Positions 1 to 13,098 of a stretch of DNA of 15,718 bases are shown piece after piece. The position numbers were made by a program, and so were the translations under genes. How positions within the stretch are numbered: the first letter of the stretch is position 1; each line of letters opens with the position of its first letter. The notes under the pieces are model-generated. The model was given only the letters and a program-made list of their open reading frames with translations. It did no database searches and was not told where the DNA came from. The stretch is from a virus (Duplodnaviria > Heunggongvirae > Uroviricota > Caudoviricetes): IMG/VR virus record IMGVR_UViG_3300029504_000114, positions 1 through 15,718 of that record. One strand, 5' to 3'.

Positions 1-1053
1 TTACGGGGTAATGCCAACCGCTGCCGCCACTTTGTCGCCACTTGGCAGCGTTGCCAGAGGATTGAAACGGAGCGCCGTTTCCAGATGATCCGGTGCCAGA
101 TGTGCGTAACGCATAGTCATTTTTATATCGTGGTGTCCGAGAATTTTTTGTAAGGCCAGAATGTTTCCACCCGACATCATGAAGTGCGCCGCAAACGTAT
201 GGCGCAGAACGTGTGTGAGTTGACCGCGAGGGAGCACGATAGACGTTTTTTCCATCACGGATAAAAATTGAAAATAGCAGTCTGTGAAGAAATTGAACCC
301 ATCAAGCGCCATGATCTCTTCGTAAAGCTCTTTACTGATAGGGATGCTTCTGTTTTTCTTCCCCTTCGTTCTTACAAAGGTAATTCGGTATTTGGTCACC
401 TGTGAACGAGTAAGATTTACGGCTTCTCGCCAGCGTGCGCCTGTGCTTAAGCATATCTTAACTACCAGTGCCAGAATTGGGTCCTGACGTTTGCAATCAG
501 CCAGTAATTCAACAATCTGCTCATGGGTAAGCCATGCCATCTCTTTTTCTGCGATGGTGAATTTTCGCATGTTCTCCAGTGGGTTCGGATACGACCATTC
601 GCCCAGGCGGGATAGTTCGCTAAAAACACTACTTAGATAGCTTTGCTCCAGGTTAATGGTGACCGGGCTTGCTCCTTTCTTCCATTTCTCGCTGAAGTAG
701 ATCTCACCTGTCAGGCGTTTATCTCGATAGTGGGCAAACATTTTAGAGGTTAGATCAGTTGCAAGGGGATTGCCCAGAGCGTCAACCATCAGCAGCAATT
801 TGTCATAGACATGCTGCCCAGCTGTCAGTGATTTACCATGTAGTTTGAACCATAGCTCAACCACGTCTTTCAGTGTTCGACGATCCACTGATTCTCCCAG
901 CCAGGGCTTTGCTTCGGTTTCTTCCATCGTATGGCGCTCAAAAGCCAGAGCTTCGCCTTTGGTGGCGAATTGTTTACGCACACGACGCCCACTACGTCCG
1001 GCGGGGTAACATTCGCAAAGCCATTTTCCTGTGGTGAGTTTTCGTACTGCCAT
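1..1053 (-). CDS. int: Phage tyrosine integrase (P2/186 Int-like)
   Basis: ORF 1..1131 (-); likely start is the Met of MAVRKLTTGKW at 1053, preceded by GGAGGG. C-terminal catalytic-region features (R...HxxR...Y: LRHTFAAHF..., MRYAHL). Stop TAA at 1-3. Confidence 0.9.
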   Translation of the reverse strand: MAVRKLTTGKWLCECYPAGRSGRRVRKQFATKGEALAFERHTMEETEAKPWLGESVDRRTLKDVVELWFKLHGKSLTAGQHVYDKLLLMVDALGNPLATDLTSKMFAHYRDKRLTGEIYFSEKWKKGASPVTINLEQSYLSSVFSELSRLGEWSYPNPLENMRKFTIAEKEMAWLTHEQIVELLADCKRQDPILALVVKICLSTGARWREAVNLTRSQVTKYRITFVRTKGKKNRSIPISKELYEEIMALDGFNFFTDCYFQFLSVMEKTSIVLPRGQLTHVLRHTFAAHFMMSGGNILALQKILGHHDIKMTMRYAHLAPDHLETALRFNPLATLPSGDKVAAAVGITP

Positions 1054-1239
1054 AAAAAATGCCCTCCAATAGAGAGCATTTTTACTGTATATATAACCAG
1101 TGTCAATGTATGAAATCCTGCGACCATACATCTCACTGAAGCCATAATGAAGTTGGCTATTTTTTGCTATGTGAGTATGTGACTTTTGCGGTTAGCCTGC
1201 GGCTCATTGTTATATTAGGCGCAGATATAAAAGCAAAAT

Positions 1240-1446: not shown

Positions 1447-2022
1447 TTACCTAACGTACTTAATTGTTAAACTTATAATTTTCCCAATTATTTCAACATC
1501 TTCTATCTTGCACTCGAAGGCTCTGTTTCCACCTTCAACGAAGATTCTTCCACCGGGTAAACGAGTAATGTCGCGGATTGTTATTTCGCCATCAATACTT
1601 ATTACCCATTTACCGTCACGTATATCATCAAATTCTTTATCACAAATAAATTCAGAATTGTTATCTGTGATGACAAAAGGTTTTTTAAACGTAGAGGGTA
1701 GAAATCCCTTATCAAAAATATAAAAACCGTCTTCACGCAAGGCACCATCAGATAATACATATTTAGCAACTTCCATAGTATTTGTATTACCTGAAGTTTG
1801 CTTTGAACCATGTCCGGTTGTGAGCCAATTAAGCGAGGTGCCCGTTTCAAGGGCGCACTGGATTACCCATTCTGCTGGGAATGAGTCACGCATGTAGCGT
1901 GTGGCGAGTGTACTTTTAGAGATTCCTAAATGATCGCACAACGCCTGTCGAGTTTTGAATCCATAAGCTTCTACCATGCGCTCTATAGCGCCTCGTCCGC
2001 CTTTCTCCAAATTCATGGTCAC
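1447..2022 (-). CDS. cI: CI-type immunity repressor (phage 186 CI-like, ~190 aa)
   Basis: 191 aa, divergent from the early operon; N-terminal HTH-like region (ERMVEAYGFKTRQALCDHLGISKSTLATRYMR) and overall resemblance to 186 CI as recalled; position between int and apl/cox. Confidence 0.8.
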   Translation of the reverse strand: MTMNLEKGGRGAIERMVEAYGFKTRQALCDHLGISKSTLATRYMRDSFPAEWVIQCALETGTSLNWLTTGHGSKQTSGNTNTMEVAKYVLSDGALREDGFYIFDKGFLPSTFKKPFVITDNNSEFICDKEFDDIRDGKWVISIDGEITIRDITRLPGGRIFVEGGNRAFECKIEDVEIIGKIISLTIKYVR

Positions 2023-3946: not shown

Positions 3947-4800
3947 GCACCATCCTGAAATGGGCGGGAAATAAAACTGCCATAATGTCCGAACTGAAAA
4001 AACATCTTCCTGCTGGCCCGCGACTGGTTGAACCTTTCGCGGGTTCCTGTGCTGTGATGATGGAGACGGATTATCCCAGCTATCTGGTTGCGGATATTAA
4101 TCCTGATTTAATCAACCTCTATAAAAAGGTTGCCGCTGATTGTGAATCGTTTATATCTCGCGCCAGAGTTTTATTTGAGATCGCAAACAGGGAGGTGGCT
4201 TATTACAACATAAGGCAGGAGTTTAATTACTCAACTGAAATTACTGATTTCATGAAAGCGGTATATTTCCTGTATCTCAATCGTCACGGTTACCGTGGTT
4301 TATGTCGCTATAACAAGAGCGGGCATTTCAACATTCCCTACGGTAATTATAAAAATCCGTATTTCCCTGAAAAAGAAATTCGCGCATTTGCAGAAAAGGC
4401 CCAGCGAGCAACGTTTATCTGCGCCAGCTTTGATGAAACGCTGGCGATGTTGAAGGCGGGGGATGTGGTGTATTGCGATCCGCCGTATGACGGTACGTTT
4501 TCCGGCTATCACACTGACGGCTTCACTGAAGATGACCAGTATCACCTGGCATCTGTTCTTGAACATCGGTCATCAGAAGGACATCCGGTCATTGTTTCTA
4601 ACAGTGACACATCCCTGATCCGTTCGCTGTATCGCAATTTTACTCACCACTACATCAAGGCAAAACGCAGCATCGGTGTGGCAGCTGGCGAGGGTAAATC
4701 AGCAACAGAAATCATTGCTGTTTCCGAGCCGCGCTGCTGGGTGGGATTTGATTATTCGCGTGGCGTGGATAGTTCTGCCGTGTACGGAGTACGTGCATGA
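3943..4800 (+). CDS. dam: DNA adenine methyltransferase (Dam-like, GATC-specific family)
   Basis: Start [11 protein letters not shown] (ATGA overlap with upstream stop); DPPY catalytic motif encoded at 4477-4488; ORF 3883..4800 trimmed to the Met with the coupled start. Confidence 0.85.
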
Positions 4801-7211
4801 GTCATGCCGATATGAACAACTGCTGCGGCTTTAACGAAGCTGCCGCATCGTTCTCATGGAACAGCCCGAAAAAGGCCATTAACCCTTATCTGGACCCGGT
4901 GGAAGTTGCGCCGGTTTCTACGCTTTCAAACCTGATCACTCTGTACGCTGCCGATAACGAGCAGGAACAGCTGCGCCGTGAGGCGCTGAGTGATCAGGTC
5001 TGGGAGCGTTATTTCTTTAATGAATCCCGTGATCCTGTCCAGCGCGAAATGGAACAGGATAAGCTCATTAGTCGGGCAAAGCTGGCGCATGAGCAGCAGC
5101 GTTTTAATCCGGATATGGTCATTCTGGCGGACGTCAACGCCCAGCCTTCCCATATCAGCAAGCCGCTGATGCAACGTATTGAATACTTCAGCAGCCTGGG
5201 CAGGCCAAAGGCTTATTCCCGCTATTTACGTGAGACGATTAAGCCATGTTTGGAACGACTGGAGCATGTACGCGACAGTCAGCTATCTGCATCTTTTCGC
5301 TTTATGGCAAGCCATGAAGGGCTGGACGGCCTGCTGATCCTGCCTGAAATGAGTCAGGATCAGGTGAAACGCCTGTCTACCTTGGTAGCTGCGCATATGA
5401 GTATGTGCCTTGATGCCGCTTGTGGCGATTTGTATGCCACCGATGACGTTAAGCCAGAAGAAATCCGCAATACATGGGAAAGGGTGGCAGCGGAAACCCT
5501 GCGTCTGGATGTCATCCCGCCTGCGTTTGAGCAACTCCGTCGGAAAAGAAACCGCCGTAAACCCGTGCCCTATGAACTCATTCCGGGTTCGCTGGCGCGT
5601 ATGTTGTGCGCCGACTGGTGGTATCGGAAATTATGGAAGATGCGTTGCGAATGGCGGGAAGAGCAGTTGCGTGCAGTCTGCCTTGTCAGCAAAAAAGCAT
5701 CTCCTTATGTCAGCTATGAAGCCGTGATGCATAAACGTGAGCAGCGCCGTAAGTCGCTGGAGTTTTTCCGTTCTCATGAGCTGGTGAACGAAGACGGCGA
5801 CACGCTGGACATGGAGGATGTGGTAAACGCCAGCAGCAGCAACCCAGCGCATCGCCGCAATGAGATGATGGCCTGTGTTAAAGGTCTGGAGCTTATCGCG
5901 GAAATGCGCGGTGACTGCGCCGTTTTCTACACCATCACCTGTCCGTCACGTTTCCATTCCACGCTAAATAACGGCAGGCCCAACCCAACCTGGACAAATG
6001 CGACGGTAAGACAAAGCAGTGATTATCTGGTCGGCATGTTTGCTGCATTTCGTAAGGCGATGCACAAAGCCGGATTGCGGTGGTATGGCGTGCGGGTGGC
6101 TGAGCCGCATCATGACGGTACAGTTCACTGGCACCTGTTGTGTTTTATGCGCAAAAAAGACCGCCGCACCATCACTGCATTACTGCGTAAGTTTGCCATC
6201 CGTGAAGACCGCGAGGAGCTGGGCAATAACACTGGGCCGCGCTTTAAGTCTGAGTTGATTAACCCGCGCAAAGGTACGCCAACAAGCTACATCGCGAAAT
6301 ACATCAGTAAGAACATTGACGGGCGTGGTCTGGCTGGCGAGATCAGCAAGGAAACGGGGAAATCCCTGCGTGATAATGCTGAATACGTTAATGCCTGGGC
6401 GTCTCTGCATCGTGTTCAGCAATTCCGCTTCTTTGGCATTCCGGGGCGTCAGGCTTACCGTGAACTGCGATTGCTGGCTGGTCAGGCGGCAAGGCAACAG
6501 GGGGACAAAAAAGCAGGTGCGCCGGTACTGGATAACCCGCGCCTTGATGCCATTCTGGCTGCTGCTGATGCTGGTTGTTTTGCCACCTACATCATGAAGC
6601 AGGGTGGCGTACTGGTTCCCCGCAAATATCACCTCATCAGAACTGCTTATGAAATCAACGAAGAGCCGACCGCCTATGGCGATCACGGCATTCGTATTTA
6701 TGGCATCTGGTCACCTATTGCAGAGGGCAAGATCTGCACTCATGCCGTGAAGTGGAAAATGGTTCGTAAGGCCGTTGACGTTCAGGAGGCGGCAGCCGAC
6801 CAGGGCGCTTGCGCCCCTTGGACTCGTGGCAATAACTGTCCCCTTGCTGAAAATTTGAACCAACAAGGGAAAGACAAATCAGCTGATGGGGATACCAGAA
6901 CGGACATTACCCGCATGGATGACAAGGAGTTGCACGATTACCTGCACAGTATGAGCAAAAAAGAGCGCCGGGAACTGGCTGCAAGGTTACGCCTGGTGAA
7001 ACCGAAACGGCGTAAAGACTACAAACAGCGAATTACAGACCATCAGCGACAGCAGCTTGTCTATGAGCTGAAGTCCAGAGGATTTGATGGTAGCGAGAAA
7101 GAGGTCGATTTACTCCTTCGCGGCGGCAGTATTCCGTCAGGAGCAGGCCTGCGTATCTTCTATCGGAACCAGCGTTTGCAGGAAGATGATAAGTGGCGGG
7201 ATCTGTATTAA
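4797..7211 (+). CDS. A: Replication initiation protein A (P2 gpA-type rolling-circle endonuclease)
   Basis: 804 aa; motifs [15 protein letters not shown] and [12 protein letters not shown] characteristic of P2/186 gpA; ATGA overlap with dam. Confidence 0.9.
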
Positions 7212-7302
7212 TTACGCGGGTTAACAATTCGTGCTCTTAATAATACCAGGCATATCAGGCTGATGAACGTAAAAAACGTTTTACATCAGTAAGATTATTA
7301 TA

Positions 7303-7322
7303 TACTGTAAATATAAACAGTG
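7303..7322. promoter_or_regulatory. LexA (SOS) box
   Basis: TACTGTAAATATAAACAGTG: CTGT-N8-ACAG at 7305-7320, ~45 bp upstream of the 62-aa ORF; an adjacent partial site ATGTATACAGTA lies at 7326-7337. Confidence 0.6.
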
Positions 7323-7362
7323 GATATGTATACAGTATTGCTTTGGTGTCATAGGAGGAAAG

Positions 7363-7551
7363 ATGCAGGACTATTTTTTGGAGTCTTTGAAGCTCCAGCG
7401 CATTGATTTTTTTCTTAAGCTTGTGGCGGCTAGTGAGTGTAGTGATGAAGAGAAGGGGCTGGCTCTGCAGTGGGTTTCTGAATTGACTGATGAACTCATG
7501 GCAAAAATCAGAACCCACGAATACAACCGCTCAATGGATGTCATCAGCTGA
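7363..7551 (+). CDS. Small protein, possible N-terminal part of a split Tum-like antirepressor
   Basis: 62 aa with strong RBS AGGAGG; directly downstream of the LexA box and upstream of the DinI-like ORF. Confidence 0.45.
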   Translation: MQDYFLESLKLQRIDFFLKLVAASECSDEEKGLALQWVSELTDELMAKIRTHEYNRSMDVIS

Positions 7552-7561
7552 GGTGACTTTT

Positions 7562-7795
7562 ATGCGCATTGAAATAATGATCGATAAAGAGCAGAAGATT
7601 AGCCAGTCTACCCTGGACGCCCTTGAATCCGAGCTTTACCGCAATCTGCGCCCCCTGTATCCCAAAACGGTAATTCGCATTCGCAAAGGTAGCTCTAACG
7701 GGGTGGAACTAACCGGACTGCAACTGGACGAAGAAAGAAAACAAGTGATGAAAATTATGCAGAAGGTGTGGGAAGACGACAGCTGGCTGCATTAA
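7562..7795 (+). CDS. DinI-like protein (Tum C-terminal domain-like)
   Basis: Start MRIEIMIDKEQ at 7562 with RBS GAGGTG; 77 aa; DinI-family pattern (MRIE... near N-terminus, ...WEDDSWLH at C-terminus). Confidence 0.75.
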   Translation: MRIEIMIDKEQKISQSTLDALESELYRNLRPLYPKTVIRIRKGSSNGVELTGLQLDEERKQVMKIMQKVWEDDSWLH

Positions 7796-7930
7796 GAAAC
7801 GTTGCTGGCGTCTGAACTTGCTTCTGGCGTCAGCAAGGTTGAACAACGAGCCCTTGCGAGGCGTTAGCTCTGTAGTGCATGTCTATGCCGCATGAGATCG
7901 CATGATCGTTTGAGGATCGTTTTTGCTAAG

Positions 7931-7954
7931 GCCCGCCAGAACTGGCGGGCTTTT
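7931..7954 (+). terminator. Rho-independent terminator after the tum/dinI-like operon
   Basis: GCCCGCCAG / CTGGCGGGC perfect 9-bp stem followed by TTTTG. Confidence 0.6.
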
Positions 7955-8026
7955 GCGTAGATCATGCAGGTGCATGAAAACCACTACATAAAGCGGGCAG
8001 GCGTGGCGGGGATACGAGCGCGCGCC

Positions 8027-8055
8027 TTGCCTTATATCTATTTGTTCATTAAAAT
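8027..8055 (+). promoter_or_regulatory. Candidate promoter for the retron ncRNA/RT operon
   Basis: TTGCCT (8027-8032), 17-bp spacer, TAAAAT (8050-8055); predicted start near 8062. Confidence 0.3.
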
Positions 8056-8061
8056 CATTAT

Positions 8062-8218
8062 GCTCTTTAGTGTAGGAACATTGGTTCCAGCCGGGTGATT
8101 AGCCAGGCTTAAATTTATTGTCCGGTTTAGGGTTGCGAAAGACACAGATTTCTCCTTCGCATCCCTGCCCGGGGCAGATATGCGAAGGAGAAATCTGTGT
8201 CTTTCGCTGTCTTTAGTG
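8062..8218 (+). ncRNA. Candidate retron msr-msd non-coding RNA (exact ends and a1/a2 unresolved)
   Basis: Non-coding segment directly upstream of the retron-type RT; small stem-loop GGAAC-ATTG-GTTCC (8075-8088) then a 73-nt near-perfect hairpin (8135-8207); bounded by a 9-bp direct repeat TCTTTAGTG (8064-8072 and 8210-8218). Confidence 0.55.
8135..8207. repeat. Long near-perfect inverted repeat / hairpin (candidate msd stem-loop of msDNA)
   Basis: GCGAAAGACACAGATTTCTCCTTCGCAT (8135-8162) is the exact reverse complement of 8180-8207; the centre CTGCCC-G-GGGCAG is itself palindromic. Confidence 0.9.
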
Positions 8219-8273
8219 AAGAGTCAAAGCGCTATGTAAAGTTGCATAGCGCTTTGGTTTTAAGAGGGGTTAT

Positions 8274-9209
8274 ATGCAACTAACTTCTAAAATTATCAGT
8301 AAGTTTAATTATAATAGATTAGCTTTCCAATTACTTTTAAATGAGGCCCCCAAAAAATATAAAGTTTATTATATTCCTAAACGTGGCGCAGGTTTTCGGG
8401 TGATAGCTCAGCCGACAAAGGAACTAAAAAACGTACAGAGATTTATAGTATCTTTGCTACAGCCAAAGCTGCCTGTTCATCATAAGGCAATGGCATATGA
8501 ATATAAAAAAAGTATTAAAGATAATGCATTGTTGCATAAAGATAATAATTATATTCTTAAAATGGATTTTCAGAACTTCTTTAACAAAATTAAACCTGAT
8601 ATATTTTTCTCGAAACTTGAGAACACAGGGCTGAAATTGGATTCATTTGATGAGAACACCCTACGTAATTTGCTTTTTTGGCGTCCGGGAAAAAAGAGAA
8701 GTACAACGTTGATATTAAGTGTAGGGGCGCCAAGCTCACCATTTATTAGTAATTTTGTTATGTATGACTTTGACAAGAGTCTTGATGATTGGTGCCGTAA
8801 CAATGGTATCACTTATTCAAGGTATGCAGATGATATAACTTTTTCAACTAATATTAAGGATATATTGTGCAGGGTTCCTAAGGTGGTAAAAAAAATGTTG
8901 TCGCTCCATGTTCCCGGTCTATCAATCAATGAATCTAAAACAATTTTTACATCGATGGCTCATAATCGGCACGTGACTGGTGTAACACTTACACCTCAGG
9001 GCAATTTATCAATTGGTCGCGATCGTAAAAGGATGCTGTTTGCAAAGATTCATAAATATTCTTTGGGACTCTTATCTTCCGAAGAAATAAATAAAACCAA
9101 AGGGATGATTGCGTTTGCAAATTATTTGGAGGGTGATTTTTTATTAAGGTTACAAAAAAAATATGGTTGTGAGTTAATAACTAAGTTCCTGATGGAAGGA
9201 AACAAATAA
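8274..9209 (+). CDS. Retron-type reverse transcriptase
   Basis: 311 aa; RT motifs YYIPKRGAGFRVI, LKMDFQNFF, VGAPSSP, YSRYADDITFS (YADD at 8823-8834) and the retron-typical NRHVTGV (VTG) motif; RBS AAGAGGGG. Confidence 0.9.
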   Translation: MQLTSKIISKFNYNRLAFQLLLNEAPKKYKVYYIPKRGAGFRVIAQPTKELKNVQRFIVSLLQPKLPVHHKAMAYEYKKSIKDNALLHKDNNYILKMDFQNFFNKIKPDIFFSKLENTGLKLDSFDENTLRNLLFWRPGKKRSTTLILSVGAPSSPFISNFVMYDFDKSLDDWCRNNGITYSRYADDITFSTNIKDILCRVPKVVKKMLSLHVPGLSINESKTIFTSMAHNRHVTGVTLTPQGNLSIGRDRKRMLFAKIHKYSLGLLSSEEINKTKGMIAFANYLEGDFLLRLQKKYGCELITKFLMEGNK

Positions 9210-10843
9210 TGATAAATAAAATGAATTTAGAGACTTGCTATGTTGATTTTTTAGAGTTGGAATCACATGTGATAAACGAGGATTATTTGAAGGAGTCTGT
9301 TGAGCTTCAAAAGCTAATATCTACTTTAAATGAGAGTAAGTTTCATTTAAATAAAATAGGTATACATGATTTTAAACGGATAAGAGAACTACAGATTTCT
9401 TTAGAAGATGATTTGACTGTTTTTGTCGGGGATAACGGATTCGGTAAAAGCACTATTTTGGATGCAATAGCAATTGTTTTGAGTTGGTTGAGATCAAATA
9501 TTGAAAAGGAGAGTAAGCCTGGTACTTATATTAAAAGCCATGAAGTTAATAACTCTGTTGATGTTGAGTATGCATCAATTGATGCAAATATAAAACTCAA
9601 GGACTTTAATACCAGTATTTTGATTACTAAAGCGAAAGAGGGGGCATATTATTCTAGAAATAATGAATTGTTGGAGGTAAAAAAACTTGCAAGTATTTAT
9701 AGACTTGTGAATAAATATGTTGATAATGCAAGCTTGCCTTTGATGGCATATTATTCTATTGCGCGTTCTTATATAGGCGGTGGGGTTGATAGGAAAAGAA
9801 AAAATGCTAAAACTAAAACTGTATGGTCAAAATTCGATGTGTATGATGAAATCGAGTTTGACAGAAATGATTTTACCGATTTTTTTCAATGGCTTGTATT
9901 TCTTCATAACAGAGCTTCACAAGAGAAATTGAGTGAGTCACAAACGACAATCAATGCGTTATTTTCAGATATTCAGAGTTTGAAAGCAACATTAACTCAA
10001 CTATCTGCGATTGATAATATTGATTCAACAGTTATAAAAGGTTTAGAGCTTTCGCTTAAAGAAAAATTGAACTACATGAAATCTCTGCAATCAGGAGAAC
10101 ATAAGTTTAATAATGCAGTATCACTTTATGATAGTGTTATAAATACCATTCTAAAGTTCTTGCCTGAATTTCAGTGGATTAAGCTTGTTTATGGTGATGA
10201 TGATTATAAGATTATCCTTAAAAAAGGAGAGGTTGAATTAGATATTCAACAGTTGTCTCAAGGTGAGAAAACTATATTTACTTTAGTTGGTGATTTGGCT
10301 CGACGTTTAATTTTACTTAATCCTAATTTATCTAATCCTCTATTGGGATATGGGATTGTTTTAATTGATGAAATTGATTTGCATTTGCATCCGCAATGGC
10401 AACAGACAATTATTGAGCGTTTGACATCTACATTCCCAAATGTTCAATTTGTAATTACTACCCATAGCCCACAGGTTTTATCCACTGTTAGCTCTCGTTC
10501 AGTGCGTATTCTACAGGAAGTGGAAGTAGATGGTGTTAATGATTTGATAGTGTCTCACCCCGACTATCAAATAAAAGGTGTTAGTAATCAGGATGCACTT
10601 TTATATGGAATGAGAACTGATCCTATACCCTCTACTAAAGAAAATGGTTGGCTTGAAGAATATAAAAAATTGGTTGAGCTTAATCGTTATAGCAGTGACG
10701 AGGCTCTTTTGTTAAGAGAAAAAGTTATTAAACATTTCGGATTAGACCATCCTTTAGTTCAAGAGTGTGATGATCTTATATCTGTTTTGGAGTTCAAAAA
10801 TAAGATAAATCAGCACTTTTCTGGAAGTAAGGATGTAAAATGA
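9209..10843 (+). CDS. ABC/SMC-type ATPase (PtuA-like retron effector ATPase)
   Basis: 544 aa; Walker A GDNGFGKST (9428-9454), signature-like LSQGEK, Walker B VLIDEIDLHLH, H-loop-like ITTHSP; start overlaps the RT stop (TAATG). Confidence 0.85.
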   Translation: MINKMNLETCYVDFLELESHVINEDYLKESVELQKLISTLNESKFHLNKIGIHDFKRIRELQISLEDDLTVFVGDNGFGKSTILDAIAIVLSWLRSNIEKESKPGTYIKSHEVNNSVDVEYASIDANIKLKDFNTSILITKAKEGAYYSRNNELLEVKKLASIYRLVNKYVDNASLPLMAYYSIARSYIGGGVDRKRKNAKTKTVWSKFDVYDEIEFDRNDFTDFFQWLVFLHNRASQEKLSESQTTINALFSDIQSLKATLTQLSAIDNIDSTVIKGLELSLKEKLNYMKSLQSGEHKFNNAVSLYDSVINTILKFLPEFQWIKLVYGDDDYKIILKKGEVELDIQQLSQGEKTIFTLVGDLARRLILLNPNLSNPLLGYGIVLIDEIDLHLHPQWQQTIIERLTSTFPNVQFVITTHSPQVLSTVSSRSVRILQEVEVDGVNDLIVSHPDYQIKGVSNQDALLYGMRTDPIPSTKENGWLEEYKKLVELNRYSSDEALLLREKVIKHFGLDHPLVQECDDLISVLEFKNKINQHFSGSKDVK

Positions 10844-11523
10844 AATATCTATCTAGGCAAATGCCAGGGCCTTCCGTTCTTAATAAATTTGACTATAGGA
10901 GGGATGATTGGAATTCCCTATCATCAAATGATAAAAAAGAAATATGGGAAGAAATAATAAAAATGCAAGGTAAATTATGTGCTTATTGCGAGAAAAAAAT
11001 AGAGCATCATAAAAGTGGTGGCAAAAATAAAGTTGAGAGGCATATTGAGCATTTTTACAGGAAAAGTTATTACAAAAATTTAACTTTCGAGTGGTCTAAT
11101 TTGTTTGGCTCATGTGGTGAGCCGCAAAGGTGTGGGTTTTATAAGGATAAGCAAAAATATAACGATGATGATTTAATTAAAGCTGATAGACAAAATCCAG
11201 ATGTTTTTTTCCATTTTTTGGAAAATGGTGATGTTCATATTAGAGAAGGCTTGAATGAGAAAGAACACAAAATGGCAGAGGTTACGTTAAGAGTATTTAA
11301 CTTAAACCCGTCCTCAGGAGGAGTCAAGGCGGAAAGAAGACGTGCAATAGAATTAAGCATGACATTAATAAAGGAACTGGTCGGATGTGCATCTCAGCTT
11401 ATTGAATCAGGATGTGAAATTGAAGATGTTAGATCTATGGTCTTTGATGAGTTTAAAAAGAATGTAAAAGATAGATGCTTTACCACTGCGATAAAGCATG
11501 TTTTTGAGAATAGAATGCCTTAA
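10840..11523 (+). CDS. HNH endonuclease (PtuB-like retron effector nuclease)
   Basis: 227 aa; CAYC...HHKSGGKNKVERHIEHF...NL...SCGEPQRC HNH/zinc-finger pattern; ATGA overlap with the ATPase stop indicates translational coupling. Confidence 0.85.
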   Translation: MKYLSRQMPGPSVLNKFDYRRDDWNSLSSNDKKEIWEEIIKMQGKLCAYCEKKIEHHKSGGKNKVERHIEHFYRKSYYKNLTFEWSNLFGSCGEPQRCGFYKDKQKYNDDDLIKADRQNPDVFFHFLENGDVHIREGLNEKEHKMAEVTLRVFNLNPSSGGVKAERRRAIELSMTLIKELVGCASQLIESGCEIEDVRSMVFDEFKKNVKDRCFTTAIKHVFENRMP

Positions 11524-11546: not shown

Positions 11547-12160
11547 TTAATCTATATTATATTCTGAGAAATTGATAATATGCATCCCTATCCACTGATT
11601 AAATTCATGGATTTTTTTTTGTAGAGGTACTAATTCATTTGTCACAAAAACCTTACTAGCTTTCTCCACATCCCCAAAACCCCCAACATTATTAGGCATT
11701 ATCCCCATCATCTGTGGCGGAACGCGATGTGCTGCCATCATGTCATCGCGGCTGACATTTTTGATATTCAGAAACTCATCCTTCGCCGCAACTTCTGACA
11801 AAGGGATGATCTGAAGGCCGTCCTTTTTGCCATTAGGCGAGTACATAAACAGGTTGCGGAAGTTGCCTGGACCTTTGGCGCTTTTCATCGCGTTGCGGAG
11901 ATTGTTCACATCCTCCTGATTCTGCGCGGCGTCGGTCATGTACATGATGAAGCCTGCATGGCTGCCGTTGATGTAATACTTACGGCGGAACAGCGTGGCA
12001 GACTCGTTGAGCAGGGCGGATGGAATGGCAGAAAGATAGCCTGGCAGGCCGTAGATCTCCTGGTTGATGTCCGGTTCCATCAGATGAAAAATGCTGCCTT
12101 TCGTGAACTGATACGGCTGGGTTGTCATACCGTATTGCACAAACCAGTAGGTACCCGCGA
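11547..12160 (-). pseudogene. Portal protein (P2 gpQ-like) fragment lacking its N-terminal part; 3' end possibly altered by the cargo junction
   Basis: Portal-like sequence from MTTQPYQFTKG onward (ATG at 12126-12128) toward lower coordinates; the upstream part of ORF 11547..12347 is antisense to the D' fragment and not portal-like. Junction coordinate approximate. Confidence 0.6.
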
Positions 12161-12554
12161 ACCTGCGAAGAAAGAAAGCACCACGGTGAAGCGTAAGCGC
12201 AGAACTAAGAAGCAGAAGAAAGAGCCAGAAGCGAAGCAGGGCGATTACCTGGTGGGTACGGATGAAAACGTGCTGGTACTTAATCGCACTTATGCCAACC
12301 GGAGCAACGCCGAACGAGCGGCGAAAATGCAGTGGGAACGCCTGCAACGCGGCGTTGCGTCATTCTCGCTACAACTGGCAGAAGGGCGGGCAGATCTCTA
12401 CACGGAAATGCCAGTGAAAGTCAGTGGCTTTAAACAGCCGATAGATGATGCGGAATGGACCATTACGACTCTGACGCATACCATCAGCCCGGATAACGGT
12501 TTTACGACCAGTCTGGAGCTTGAAGTGAGGATTGATGATTTCGAAATGGAATGA
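12160..12554 (+). pseudogene. Tail protein D (P2 gpD-like) C-terminal fragment
   Basis: C-terminal ~130 aa of ORF 11958..12554 (...LNRTYANRSNAERAAKMQWERLQRGV...FTTSLELEVRIDDFEME) resembles gpD C-terminus as recalled; N-terminal 65 aa of the ORF is antisense to the portal fragment. Junction approximate. Confidence 0.55.
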
Positions 12555-12644
12555 TTCTTCGCAATGGAGAACTTTTAAGTTTGCAAAATGGAATAATGCG
12601 GTATCATTATTGTGAATTTAGCAAAAATGGGGAGAACTCGAAAA

Positions 12645-12863
12645 ATGATGATTTGCCCACTGTGTGGAAGTGCCGCCCATACTCGCAGCAGTTTTCAGGT
12701 ATCTTCATTGACCAAAGAGCGTTACAACCAGTGCCAGAACATTAACTGCAGCCATACTTTTGTTACCCATGAAACTTTTGTTCGTTCGATTGCAACGCCA
12801 AAAGAGTCAAATCCGGTTCAGCCGCATCCAATGAAATCAGGACAGGTGGCGCTCTCTCTTTGA
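12645..12863 (+). CDS. ogr: Ogr/Delta-family zinc-finger late transcription activator
   Basis: Start MMICPLCGSAAHTRSS (ATG 12645, RBS GGGGAGA); CPLC...(Ogr-type) ...CQNINCSHTF zinc-finger pattern; ~72 aa. Confidence 0.8.
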   Translation: MMICPLCGSAAHTRSSFQVSSLTKERYNQCQNINCSHTFVTHETFVRSIATPKESNPVQPHPMKSGQVALSL

Positions 12864-12943
12864 CGCTGCCGCCATTTTGTCGCCATCGTTAAAAAACAGT
12901 GTTTCTAACATCATGATTTTAAACAGCTTAAATTTCAGGCAAC

Positions 12944-12986
12944 AAAAAACCCATCAACCTTGAACCGAAATGGCGGGGTTGATGGG
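12944..12986 (-). terminator. Rho-independent terminator on the minus strand downstream of ybjL
   Basis: CCCATCAACC (12950-12959) / GGTTGATGGG (12977-12986) 10-bp stem; on the minus strand it is followed by a T6 run (plus-strand A6 at 12944-12949). Confidence 0.5.
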
Positions 12987-13098
12987 CTCCACAAAATGGG
13001 GACATCAAAGAAAAGCAGTGGCACTAATTAAGACTGATGCCCTGCGGAAAAGTTCTGCGGTTGTGCAAAAAAATTTCATTTTCAGGGCAACTTCAGTT

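Follow-up and report, generated by a model that had tools for sequence, protein, structure and literature searches.

The window, by which we mean the whole 15,718-nucleotide stretch of DNA that was analysed, carries what is most probably the SOS operon of a 186/Fels-2-like prophage in its two-gene form, tumA–tumB, in which LexA would keep the promoter silent and TumA would act as an antirepressor of the CI repressor (we put the probability of this reading at roughly 0.85). The sequence anatomy of the module, the homology of both of its open reading frames (ORFs) to Tum, the conservation of its promoter and operator and the presence of a 186-type CI are all established in the window. The module is not new, having been described for phages PSP3 and Fels-2, and it occurs here in its most common form. 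Its discovery value is small, as this is the textbook SOS switch of 186-like phages with a split form that is already on record. The additions made here are modest, namely a double operator of the colicin type, a covariation between TumA and the N-terminal domain of CI, and a LexA-like box before the integrase gene.

The window holds a 186/Fels-2-like (Peduoviridae) prophage, which is inserted between rcdA and the sRNA gene rybB. Its left arm comprises the integrase gene int (1-1131, minus strand) and the gene for a 186-type CI repressor with HTH and CI_C domains (1447-2022, minus strand; PF07022, E=2.8e-33, and PF16452, E=2e-28), after which come, in order, the genes for Apl/Cox, CII, Fil, a DUF5347 protein, a DUF2732 protein, a DksA-like protein and a methylase, and then the gene for replication protein A (gpA; 4797-7211; PF05840, E=1.6e-127). 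The module is situated downstream of gene A, in a P2/186-like genome with a 186-type CI, as is characteristic of Tum modules of the 186 type, and the gene order int-cI / apl-cII-fil-...-A-[LexA box]-ORF62-DinI is the same as that of 186 and Fels-2.

Upstream of the first ORF, the DNA reads as a sigma-70 promoter with a -10 hexamer overlapped by a LexA site. The predicted -35 hexamer, TTTACA (7280-7285, plus strand), aligns with the annotated -35 of the 186 promoter p95, and the -10 hexamer TACTGT (7303-7308, plus strand), 17 bp away, doubles as the first six bases of a putative 20-mer LexA box, TACTGTAAATATAAACAGTG (7303-7322, plus strand). The core of this first box, CTGTAAATATAAACAG (7305-7320, plus strand), is predicted from its sequence and is the sole occurrence of CTGT-N8-ACAG in the window, where 0.15 would be expected by chance; on its own the 16-mer is weak evidence for a LexA box, because at least one such match was found in 28 of 200 shuffles. 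The 20-mer agrees with the LexA consensus at 17 of its 20 positions, and an equal match was obtained in none of the 200 shuffles. The decisive support for the predicted promoter and operator is comparative. When the region upstream of the first ORF was aligned across nine diverged P2/186-like phages (mean column identity 51%), 17 columns were invariant, of which 14 make up TT.ACA, TACTGT and CAGT with fixed spacing and the remaining three are isolated upstream positions. The curated record of 186 annotates the aligned elements as the -35, the -10 and the LexA site of p95, ‘SOS-dependent transcription of SOS operon’. Rfam gave no match inside the tumA/tumB module.

A second predicted LexA box, GTGGATATGTATACAG (7320-7335, plus strand), follows directly, so that two 16-nt boxes, 7305-7320 and 7320-7335, appear to have one base pair in common. 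Box 2 carries GTGG where CTGT is expected, and colicin operators do likewise. Over 37 nt, the operator shares 89% identity with the DNA just in front of the colicin Y gene, and CTGTA.ATA.AA.CAGTGG.TAT.T.TACAGTATT is invariant in an alignment with the colicin E1 operator. The ColE1 and colicin Y operators have the same 33-nt architecture, CTGT-N8-(A/C)CAG-TGG-N8-ACAG, with one base common to both boxes, whereas their promoter context and downstream gene are unlike those of the phage module. By this resemblance the operator in the window is a colicin-type pair of overlapping SOS boxes. Colicin operators with overlapping SOS boxes are bound cooperatively by two LexA dimers and repression is very tight, with no detectable basal expression from operators of this double-box design (PMC2994835). 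In the nine-phage alignment, box 2 is kept in the Fels-2-type group and missing from 186 and ESSI-2, and the double operator would suggest, by analogy with the colicins, an induction threshold higher than that of 186.

The first gene of the operon, here called ORF62 or tumA (7363-7551, plus strand), encodes a protein of 62 amino acids that is predicted to be the antirepressor, and its ribosome binding site, read from the sequence as AGGAGG (7353-7358, plus strand), lies four bases upstream of the ORF and is kept in six relatives. Differences among six relatives are distributed over the three codon positions as 86/63/280 in ORF62 and 115/57/390 in the DinI-like ORF that follows it; that they fall mainly at third positions indicates that both ORFs are under purifying selection and are real genes. 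Two minus-strand ORFs, 7255-7518 and 7371-7544, were rejected as genes on the grounds that their frames are not kept open in the relatives. ORF62 falls into an annotation gap: it is a ‘hypothetical protein’ in RefSeq and lacks a Pfam match, neither it nor the DinI-like ORF has a family in PADLOC, and the PHROG that it matches (phrog_698, E=3.6e-38) is listed as of unknown function.

Pairwise BLASTP of ORF62 against 186 Tum gave no match, and it is at the level of profiles that the relationship appears. A profile made from the ORF62 family only, run with hmmsearch, scores 33.9 bits on residues 6-48 of 186 Tum, where the best of 2000 shuffles reached 7.9, and 35-43 bits on stand-alone 186-type ‘Tum protein’ sequences, while hhalign comparison of ORF62 with 186-type Tum family alignments gives a probability of 97.6% (E=4.5e-12). 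Six residues, E7, R13, C26, A34, E40 and L41, are nearly invariant in both the ORF62 and the 186-type Tum families. From these profile matches and cross-family invariant residues, ORF62 is identified as a homologue of the N-terminal half of 186 Tum. Its family forms 66 representative clusters among 1.84 billion proteins, nearly all of them stand-alone proteins of 55-75 aa, and diverse members display the motif LQRI.L..RLVA...C...DKELAL.WI.EL. No convincing fusion of an ORF62-type N-terminus to DinI was found among these 66 clusters. The long matches there represent either extensions at the N-terminus or chimeric fragments, and complete or partial fusions were observed only in the 186-type family. 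AlphaFold2 models ORF62 as a hairpin of two helices, formed by residues 5-23 and 28-61 (pLDDT 87.8), whose turn contains the conserved Cys. A phmmer search of ORF62 against PDB sequences gave no match at E<=10, and a Foldseek search of the model against the PDB was uninformative, returning generic helical hairpins only (E>1).

The second gene, tumB (7562-7795, plus strand), begins with an ATG at 7562-7564 behind the ribosome binding site GAGGTG (7550-7555, plus strand), which overlaps the tumA stop codon, and encodes a 77-aa protein of the DinI type. It covers the whole PF06183 DinI profile (positions 1-63 of 63; E=6.6e-23; 81.3 bits, the Pfam gathering score being 24.2), matches E. coli DinI (PDB 1GHH) over residues 1-75 (E=2.7e-6) and is 41% identical, end to end, to residues 71-145 of 186 Tum (E=3e-24). 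An in-frame extension of this ORF to 101 aa, starting at 7490, was discarded, as it has no ribosome binding site and both the homologues and RefSeq start at ATG 7562.

In 186, Tum is one polypeptide of 146 aa with an internal ribosome binding site and GTG start for the DinI-like part, whereas in the window the first ORF ends at a TGA (7549-7551) and, after a 10-nt gap, translation would begin anew from a separate ribosome binding site and ATG. The stop, the gap and the new start place the locus in the split tumA/tumB subtype and not in the fused 186 form; its two adjacent same-strand ORFs, one of about 60 aa and one 77-aa DinI-like, stand behind one LexA-boxed promoter. A preliminary description of this DNA had proposed a near-consensus LexA box at 7305-7320 on the likely promoter, a 62-aa ORF with a strong ribosome binding site, a 77-aa DinI-like protein, and a Tum module split into these two ORFs. 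Each of these proposals holds, the first at the level of sequence, by the 17/20 match, the p95 layout and the nine-phage invariance, and the last by the position, the p95-like promoter, the matching of both halves and the 186-type CI. Alignment of the two ORFs with 186 Tum, which the same description had suggested as a check, assigns the DinI-like ORF to residues 71-145 and ORF62 to residues 6-48, the latter by profile only.

The closest relatives of the module are found in the prophages and phages of the Fels-2 type. ORF62 is 98.4% identical to STM2728 of Fels-2 and 88.7% identical to orf10 of SopEPhi, and its counterpart in many P2-like phages of Klebsiella is 100% identical. The DinI-like protein of the window is identical to the DinI-family protein of Fels-2, which is annotated as similar to ‘TumB [PsP3]’, and the translation of PSP3 TumB is, by eye, closely similar to it. 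In the PSP3 record (GenBank AY135486) tumA is described as ‘similar to 5' end 186 tum; UV induction of prophage’ and tumB as ‘similar to dinI and 3' end of 186 tum’, and Lemire et al., in 2011, stated that a stop codon splits tum in Fels-2 and PSP3 (PMC3121763). STM2728/STM2726.1 of Fels-2 and tumA/tumB of PSP3 occupy the same site after gene A, with a LexA-boxed promoter and ORFs of about 60 and 77 aa. The downstream cargo differs, Fels-2 having a gene in the orf97 position where the window has a retron, and the prophage of the window, unlike Fels-2 and PSP3, has no structural genes. PSP3 TumA is a third sequence type, with about 25% identity to ORF62 over 40 aligned residues, and is paired with a different CI. 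That the upstream PSP3 gene encodes the antirepressor is stated by Lemire et al. with reference to Bunny et al. (2002) and to a personal communication by G. Christie; as told there, the antirepressor role of a stand-alone TumA goes back to this personal communication, relayed in two papers (PMC3121763). A literature search on PSP3 TumA and TumB by name returned nothing relevant. Expression of SopEPhi Tum has been used in vivo as a read-out of the SOS response.

The likeness to 186 extends to the promoter geometry of p95-tum (-35 TTCACA in 186 versus TTTACA here, with the -10 TACTGT forming the left half of the LexA box), to an N-terminal antirepressor segment followed by a C-terminal DinI-like segment, to the 186-type CI, and to a terminator with an accessory gene slot beyond it. 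Apart from the fusion, 186 differs in having one LexA box where the window has two, and the N-terminal segments are only about 22% identical. Phages of the ESSI-2 type have a tumA-like gene behind a LexA box without a dinI partner, which supports the view that TumA can stand alone as a self-sufficient antirepressor. A more distant parallel is provided by the gfoA and gftA operons of the Gifsy prophages, which belong to lambdoid prophages of Salmonella and place a DinI homologue and a small antirepressor of a non-cleavable repressor together under LexA control (PMC3121763). In these operons, however, dinI comes first, the antirepressor and repressor belong to unrelated families, and the phage is lambdoid.

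As to which of the two arrangements is the usual one, of 5426 complete E. coli genomes 1125 contain the module (7270-7800), the E. coli B derivative NEBExpress_Iq among them, and 42 contain DNA of the 186-type tum, which is full length in five. The 186-type N-terminal family likewise consists mostly of stand-alone proteins, of 63-78 aa. These counts, the dominance of stand-alone proteins and the internal start in 186 indicate that the two-gene form is the norm and the fused gene of 186 the exception. The split does not set this locus apart; it has been published for both Fels-2 and PSP3, and it predominates in E. coli.

No phage CI in our collection is more than 53.5% identical to the CI of the window, and a mismatched pair of TumA and CI is thus conceivable. 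The divergence is distributed unevenly: compared with the CIs of phages whose TumA is identical or almost so, the window's CI shows 69-78% identity in the N-terminal domain and 30-40% in the C-terminal domain. When the CIs of phages in this set (four with a 100% identical TumA, and vB_EcoM-813R9 at about 90%) were compared with each other, the N-terminal HTH domains were 65-85% and the C-terminal domains 25-47% identical. Across nine phages with four TumA types, which give 36 non-independent pairs, the identity of TumA correlates with that of the CI N-terminal domain with a Spearman coefficient of 0.90, compared to 0.19 for the C-terminal domain. The N-terminal domains are in general the more conserved, and, with a recognition helix that hardly varies within the group, these CIs may not represent different immunity types. 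That the TumA type follows the N-terminal domain suggests that TumA docks on the DNA-binding domain of CI, which would fit the known effect of Tum on operator binding; we regard this as a lead.

The sequence of events that we propose is taken, as regards LexA control and antirepressor action, from 186 Tum, with antirepressor activity drawn also from the upstream gene of PSP3. In 186, p95-tum is sufficient for derepression of pR by UV, through sequestration of CI (PMC7708051). In an undamaged cell, LexA would sit on the double operator, covering the -10, the start site expected from the example of 186 p95 and the early transcribed region, and the promoter would be silent. DNA damage would lead to RecA-stimulated self-cleavage of LexA and open the promoter. 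TumA, a 62-aa helical hairpin, would then bind the non-cleavable 186-type CI stoichiometrically, most likely at its conserved N-terminal DNA-binding domain, and remove it from the lytic promoter; with CI sequestered, the early lytic operon would be derepressed. TumB, as a member of the DinI family, probably modulates the activity of the RecA filament and in this way may tune or limit the SOS signal, although deletion of the dinI homologue in Gifsy prophages had no detectable effect on induction (PMC3121763). We infer, then, the activity of the module in the prophage of the window, the docking site on CI and the role of TumB.

How far this sequence of events could run in the window depends on the state of the prophage. 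To the right of the retron are a truncated portal gene, a gpD fragment, ogr, RybB (12941-13019, minus strand), ybjL and grxA. As far as 12153, a position within the portal gene, the window runs collinear with the prophage of E. coli FORC_082, and collinearity resumes at the end of gene D, from which it follows that all the structural genes have been deleted; the deletion is also visible in the profile matches, as portal and gpD fragments. This copy of the prophage is defective: with everything from the portal gene to gene D gone, virions cannot be made, and induction could do no more than relieve repression of the early genes (apl, cII, fil, A) and set off excision or replication.

With that deletion in mind, the module may be a relic, induced in the SOS response with effects at the level of the host only, such as DinI-like modulation of RecA, or toxicity mediated by Fil and A, excision or curing, or it may act through TumA in trans on the CIs of other resident P2-like prophages. 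We hold the odds of this to be somewhat below even. In E. coli B the lineage to which the prophage belongs has also decayed, with cII and A reduced to pseudogenes but ORF62 and dinI intact. Action in trans is made plausible by the pairing of an identical TumA with CIs that are only 25-47% identical in the C-terminal domain, and antirepressor crosstalk between prophages has been documented for Gifsy and Fels-1 (PMC3121763). On the other hand, the window has intact ORFs for int, CI, Apl, CII, A, TumA and TumB, and an operator without mutations relative to Fels-2. The relic and the operative LexA–TumA–CI switch are, moreover, not exclusive of each other, because the molecular mechanism would be the same.

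A bolder extension of the switch can be considered, in which the Fels-2 type would depart meaningfully from the 186 paradigm: the double operator would raise the SOS threshold considerably, TumA would disable many CI variants through their HTH domain, and a separate LexA-boxed promoter would supply the integrase during induction. We offer this combination tentatively and think it rather doubtful as a whole. Its third element refers to a second LexA-like box that is predicted in front of int, at the site 1078-1106; a literature search for LexA-controlled integrase promoters in P2-like phages returned nothing relevant. If the combination were true, one near-invariant TumA allele could cross-induce co-resident P2-like prophages in spite of their divergent CI C-terminal domains. 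A further long shot is that residual read-through would make the cargo of the hotspot behind the module, here a retron, weakly responsive to SOS.

This cargo begins shortly after tumB, and the preliminary description had placed one terminator in between. Two stem-loops are in fact present, of which one bears that label: the stem-loop directly after tumB (7798-7840, plus strand) has no U tract, whereas the GC-rich hairpin of 11 bp at about 7928-7957 (plus strand), which is followed by UUUU, is terminator-like, occupies the position of t95a in 186 and is the likely end of the SOS operon. Beyond it come a retron promoter-like site, TTGCCT-17-TAAAAT (8027-8055), just before the match to msr (8062-8126; 45.9 bits, which is below the Rfam gathering score), then the msd region (8128-8265) and the genes for the retron reverse transcriptase (RT_I-A; 8274-9209; E=4.9e-131), the PtuA ATPase (9209-10843; E=1.7e-193) and the PtuB HNH protein (10840-11523; E=1.5e-117). 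The retron is of the Ec78 type (type I-A), is on the same strand, lies 270 bp downstream of tumB and occupies the slot of the orf97-position gene of Fels-2. The interval between gene A and the portal gene is a defence hotspot of P2 phages, with retrons among its cargo (PMC9122126), and by its content and position the Ec78-type retron is cargo in this gpA-portal hotspot, a neighbour of tumAB that appears to have its own promoter-like site behind the terminator.

The same description had called SOS read-through into the retron conceivable. In its strong form, the SOS promoter would read through the terminator after tumB and make msr-msd, the reverse transcriptase and PtuAB inducible by DNA damage, as with orf97 in 186, where t95a is annotated as partial and the downstream orf97 is part of the p95 transcript. 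The shared strand, the short distance and the orf97-position slot favour such coupling, as does a U tract of only four residues. Against it, the 11-bp hairpin belongs to the conserved phage backbone, which many E. coli prophages have in common to about 8025, past the hairpin, whatever the cargo; the retron has a separate promoter-like site just ahead of msr; and the retron is present in only 4 of the approximately 1100-1300 E. coli genomes that bear the module, so that any coupling would be incidental. Read-through is conceivable, but we consider it improbable; nothing here calls for it, and it is unlikely to be important.

Least credible, and in our estimate very improbable, is that ORF62 is an unrelated small regulator, the ‘levan regulatory (domain) protein’ of some UniRef and phage records, with the DinI-like gene alone as the functional SOS product: the lack of a Pfam or PADLOC family, the unknown PHROG function and the negative BLASTP against 186 Tum would allow it, but the profile comparisons tie ORF62 to the N-terminal half of Tum with strong statistics, the six nearly invariant residues are common to both families, the position, promoter and partner gene are those of PSP3 tumA, and the name ‘levan regulatory protein’, used for a protein of this kind, is without any sequence support.

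With ORF62 read as TumA, this 62-aa gene probably serves to induce the P2-like prophages of roughly a fifth of complete E. coli genomes, E. coli B laboratory strains included. The double operator and the covariation of TumA with CI yield predictions on the induction threshold and on antirepressor docking that would be cheap to follow up. The module also marks the upstream border of the gpA-portal defence hotspot, and so helps to delimit its cargo, which is of the Ec78 type in the window and is retron Ec86, in the same slot of the same prophage lineage, in E. coli B. The record of SopEPhi, for its part, mentions a ‘DinI-like protein in retron EC67’.

The promoter of tumA–tumB, the gene pair encoding the predicted antirepressor TumA and a DinI-like protein, carries two overlapping SOS boxes (7303–7335) arranged as a colicin-type pair, which together form the tum operator. 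The operator that immediately precedes the colicin Y gene is 89% identical to it over 37 nt, and that of colicin E1 can also be aligned with it. Col plasmids and Fels-2-type phages could have inherited this shared operator design from one ancestral sequence, or could have arrived at it by convergence.

A second LexA-box-like site is found on the minus strand at 1078–1106, upstream of the integrase gene int (ATG at 1051). Its 20-mer, which on the plus strand (1083–1102) reads TACTGTATATATAACCAGTG, matches the LexA consensus at 17 of 20 positions and in the minus-strand reading takes the form CTGG-N8-ACAG; it is flanked by a perfect –35 element, TTGACA, and by AAAAAT, and is about 30 nt ahead of the integrase start codon. 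Two Klebsiella phages, 4LV2017 and KP12, and the E. coli phage 813R9 also retain the site, with a variable N8 core and with different genes upstream. This LexA-like site suggests that the int promoter is under SOS control; a literature search for LexA-controlled integrase promoters in P2-like phages returned nothing relevant.

Although TumA (7363–7551) is 98–100% identical to many of its phage counterparts, no sequenced phage encodes a close relative of the 186-type repressor CI (1447–2022, minus strand), the presumed target of TumA; the best phage match to this CI is 53.5% identical. Across phages, CI identity is 65–85% in the N-terminal domain versus 25–47% in the C-terminal domain.

Immediately after tumB, the DinI-like gene, there is a 230 bp non-coding stretch (7796–8025) that is about 99% conserved in many E. 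coli prophages, independently of the cargo downstream. It is predicted to fold into two strong hairpins, with a better fold than all 200 of 200 shuffled sequences (z = –3.7), and is without a match in Rfam. In the window, the cargo is a complete type I-A (Ec78-like) retron occupying 8027–11523, which begins with a promoter-like site (8027–8055) followed by the msr (8062–8126; a match to Rfam family RF00170 at 45.9 bits, short of the gathering score) and the msd region (8128–8265), with the RT, PtuA and PtuB genes then following in that order. The msd region, which contains a 36-nt inverted repeat (8135–8207), matches Rfam family STnc400 at 73 bits, just below the gathering score of 80, and this family may simply be a retron msd.

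A cryptic prophage of the E. coli B lineage, seen in NEBExpress_Iq (locus L026, 4593–8074), occupies the same rcdA site, encodes a protein closely similar to the window's 62-residue TumA and an identical DinI-like protein (one RefSeq accession covers both), and holds retron Ec86 (St85 family) in the cargo hotspot between gene A and the portal gene. As this prophage has tumA and tumB counterparts, the BL21 laboratory lineage could be a ready test bed for the tumA/tumB switch.

The prophage in the window is a remnant retaining the regulatory and replication arm and the retron. At 11547–12863 a deletion has brought the portal gene up against the 3′-terminal part of gene D; homology to the prophage of E. 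coli FORC_082 stops within the portal gene, at 12153, and ogr (12612–12863) is the sole gene remaining between the deletion and the attachment site adjoining rybB (12941–13019, minus strand). The position of rybB fits an insertion of the prophage at the 3′ end of that sRNA gene, with rcdA on one side and ybjL on the other.
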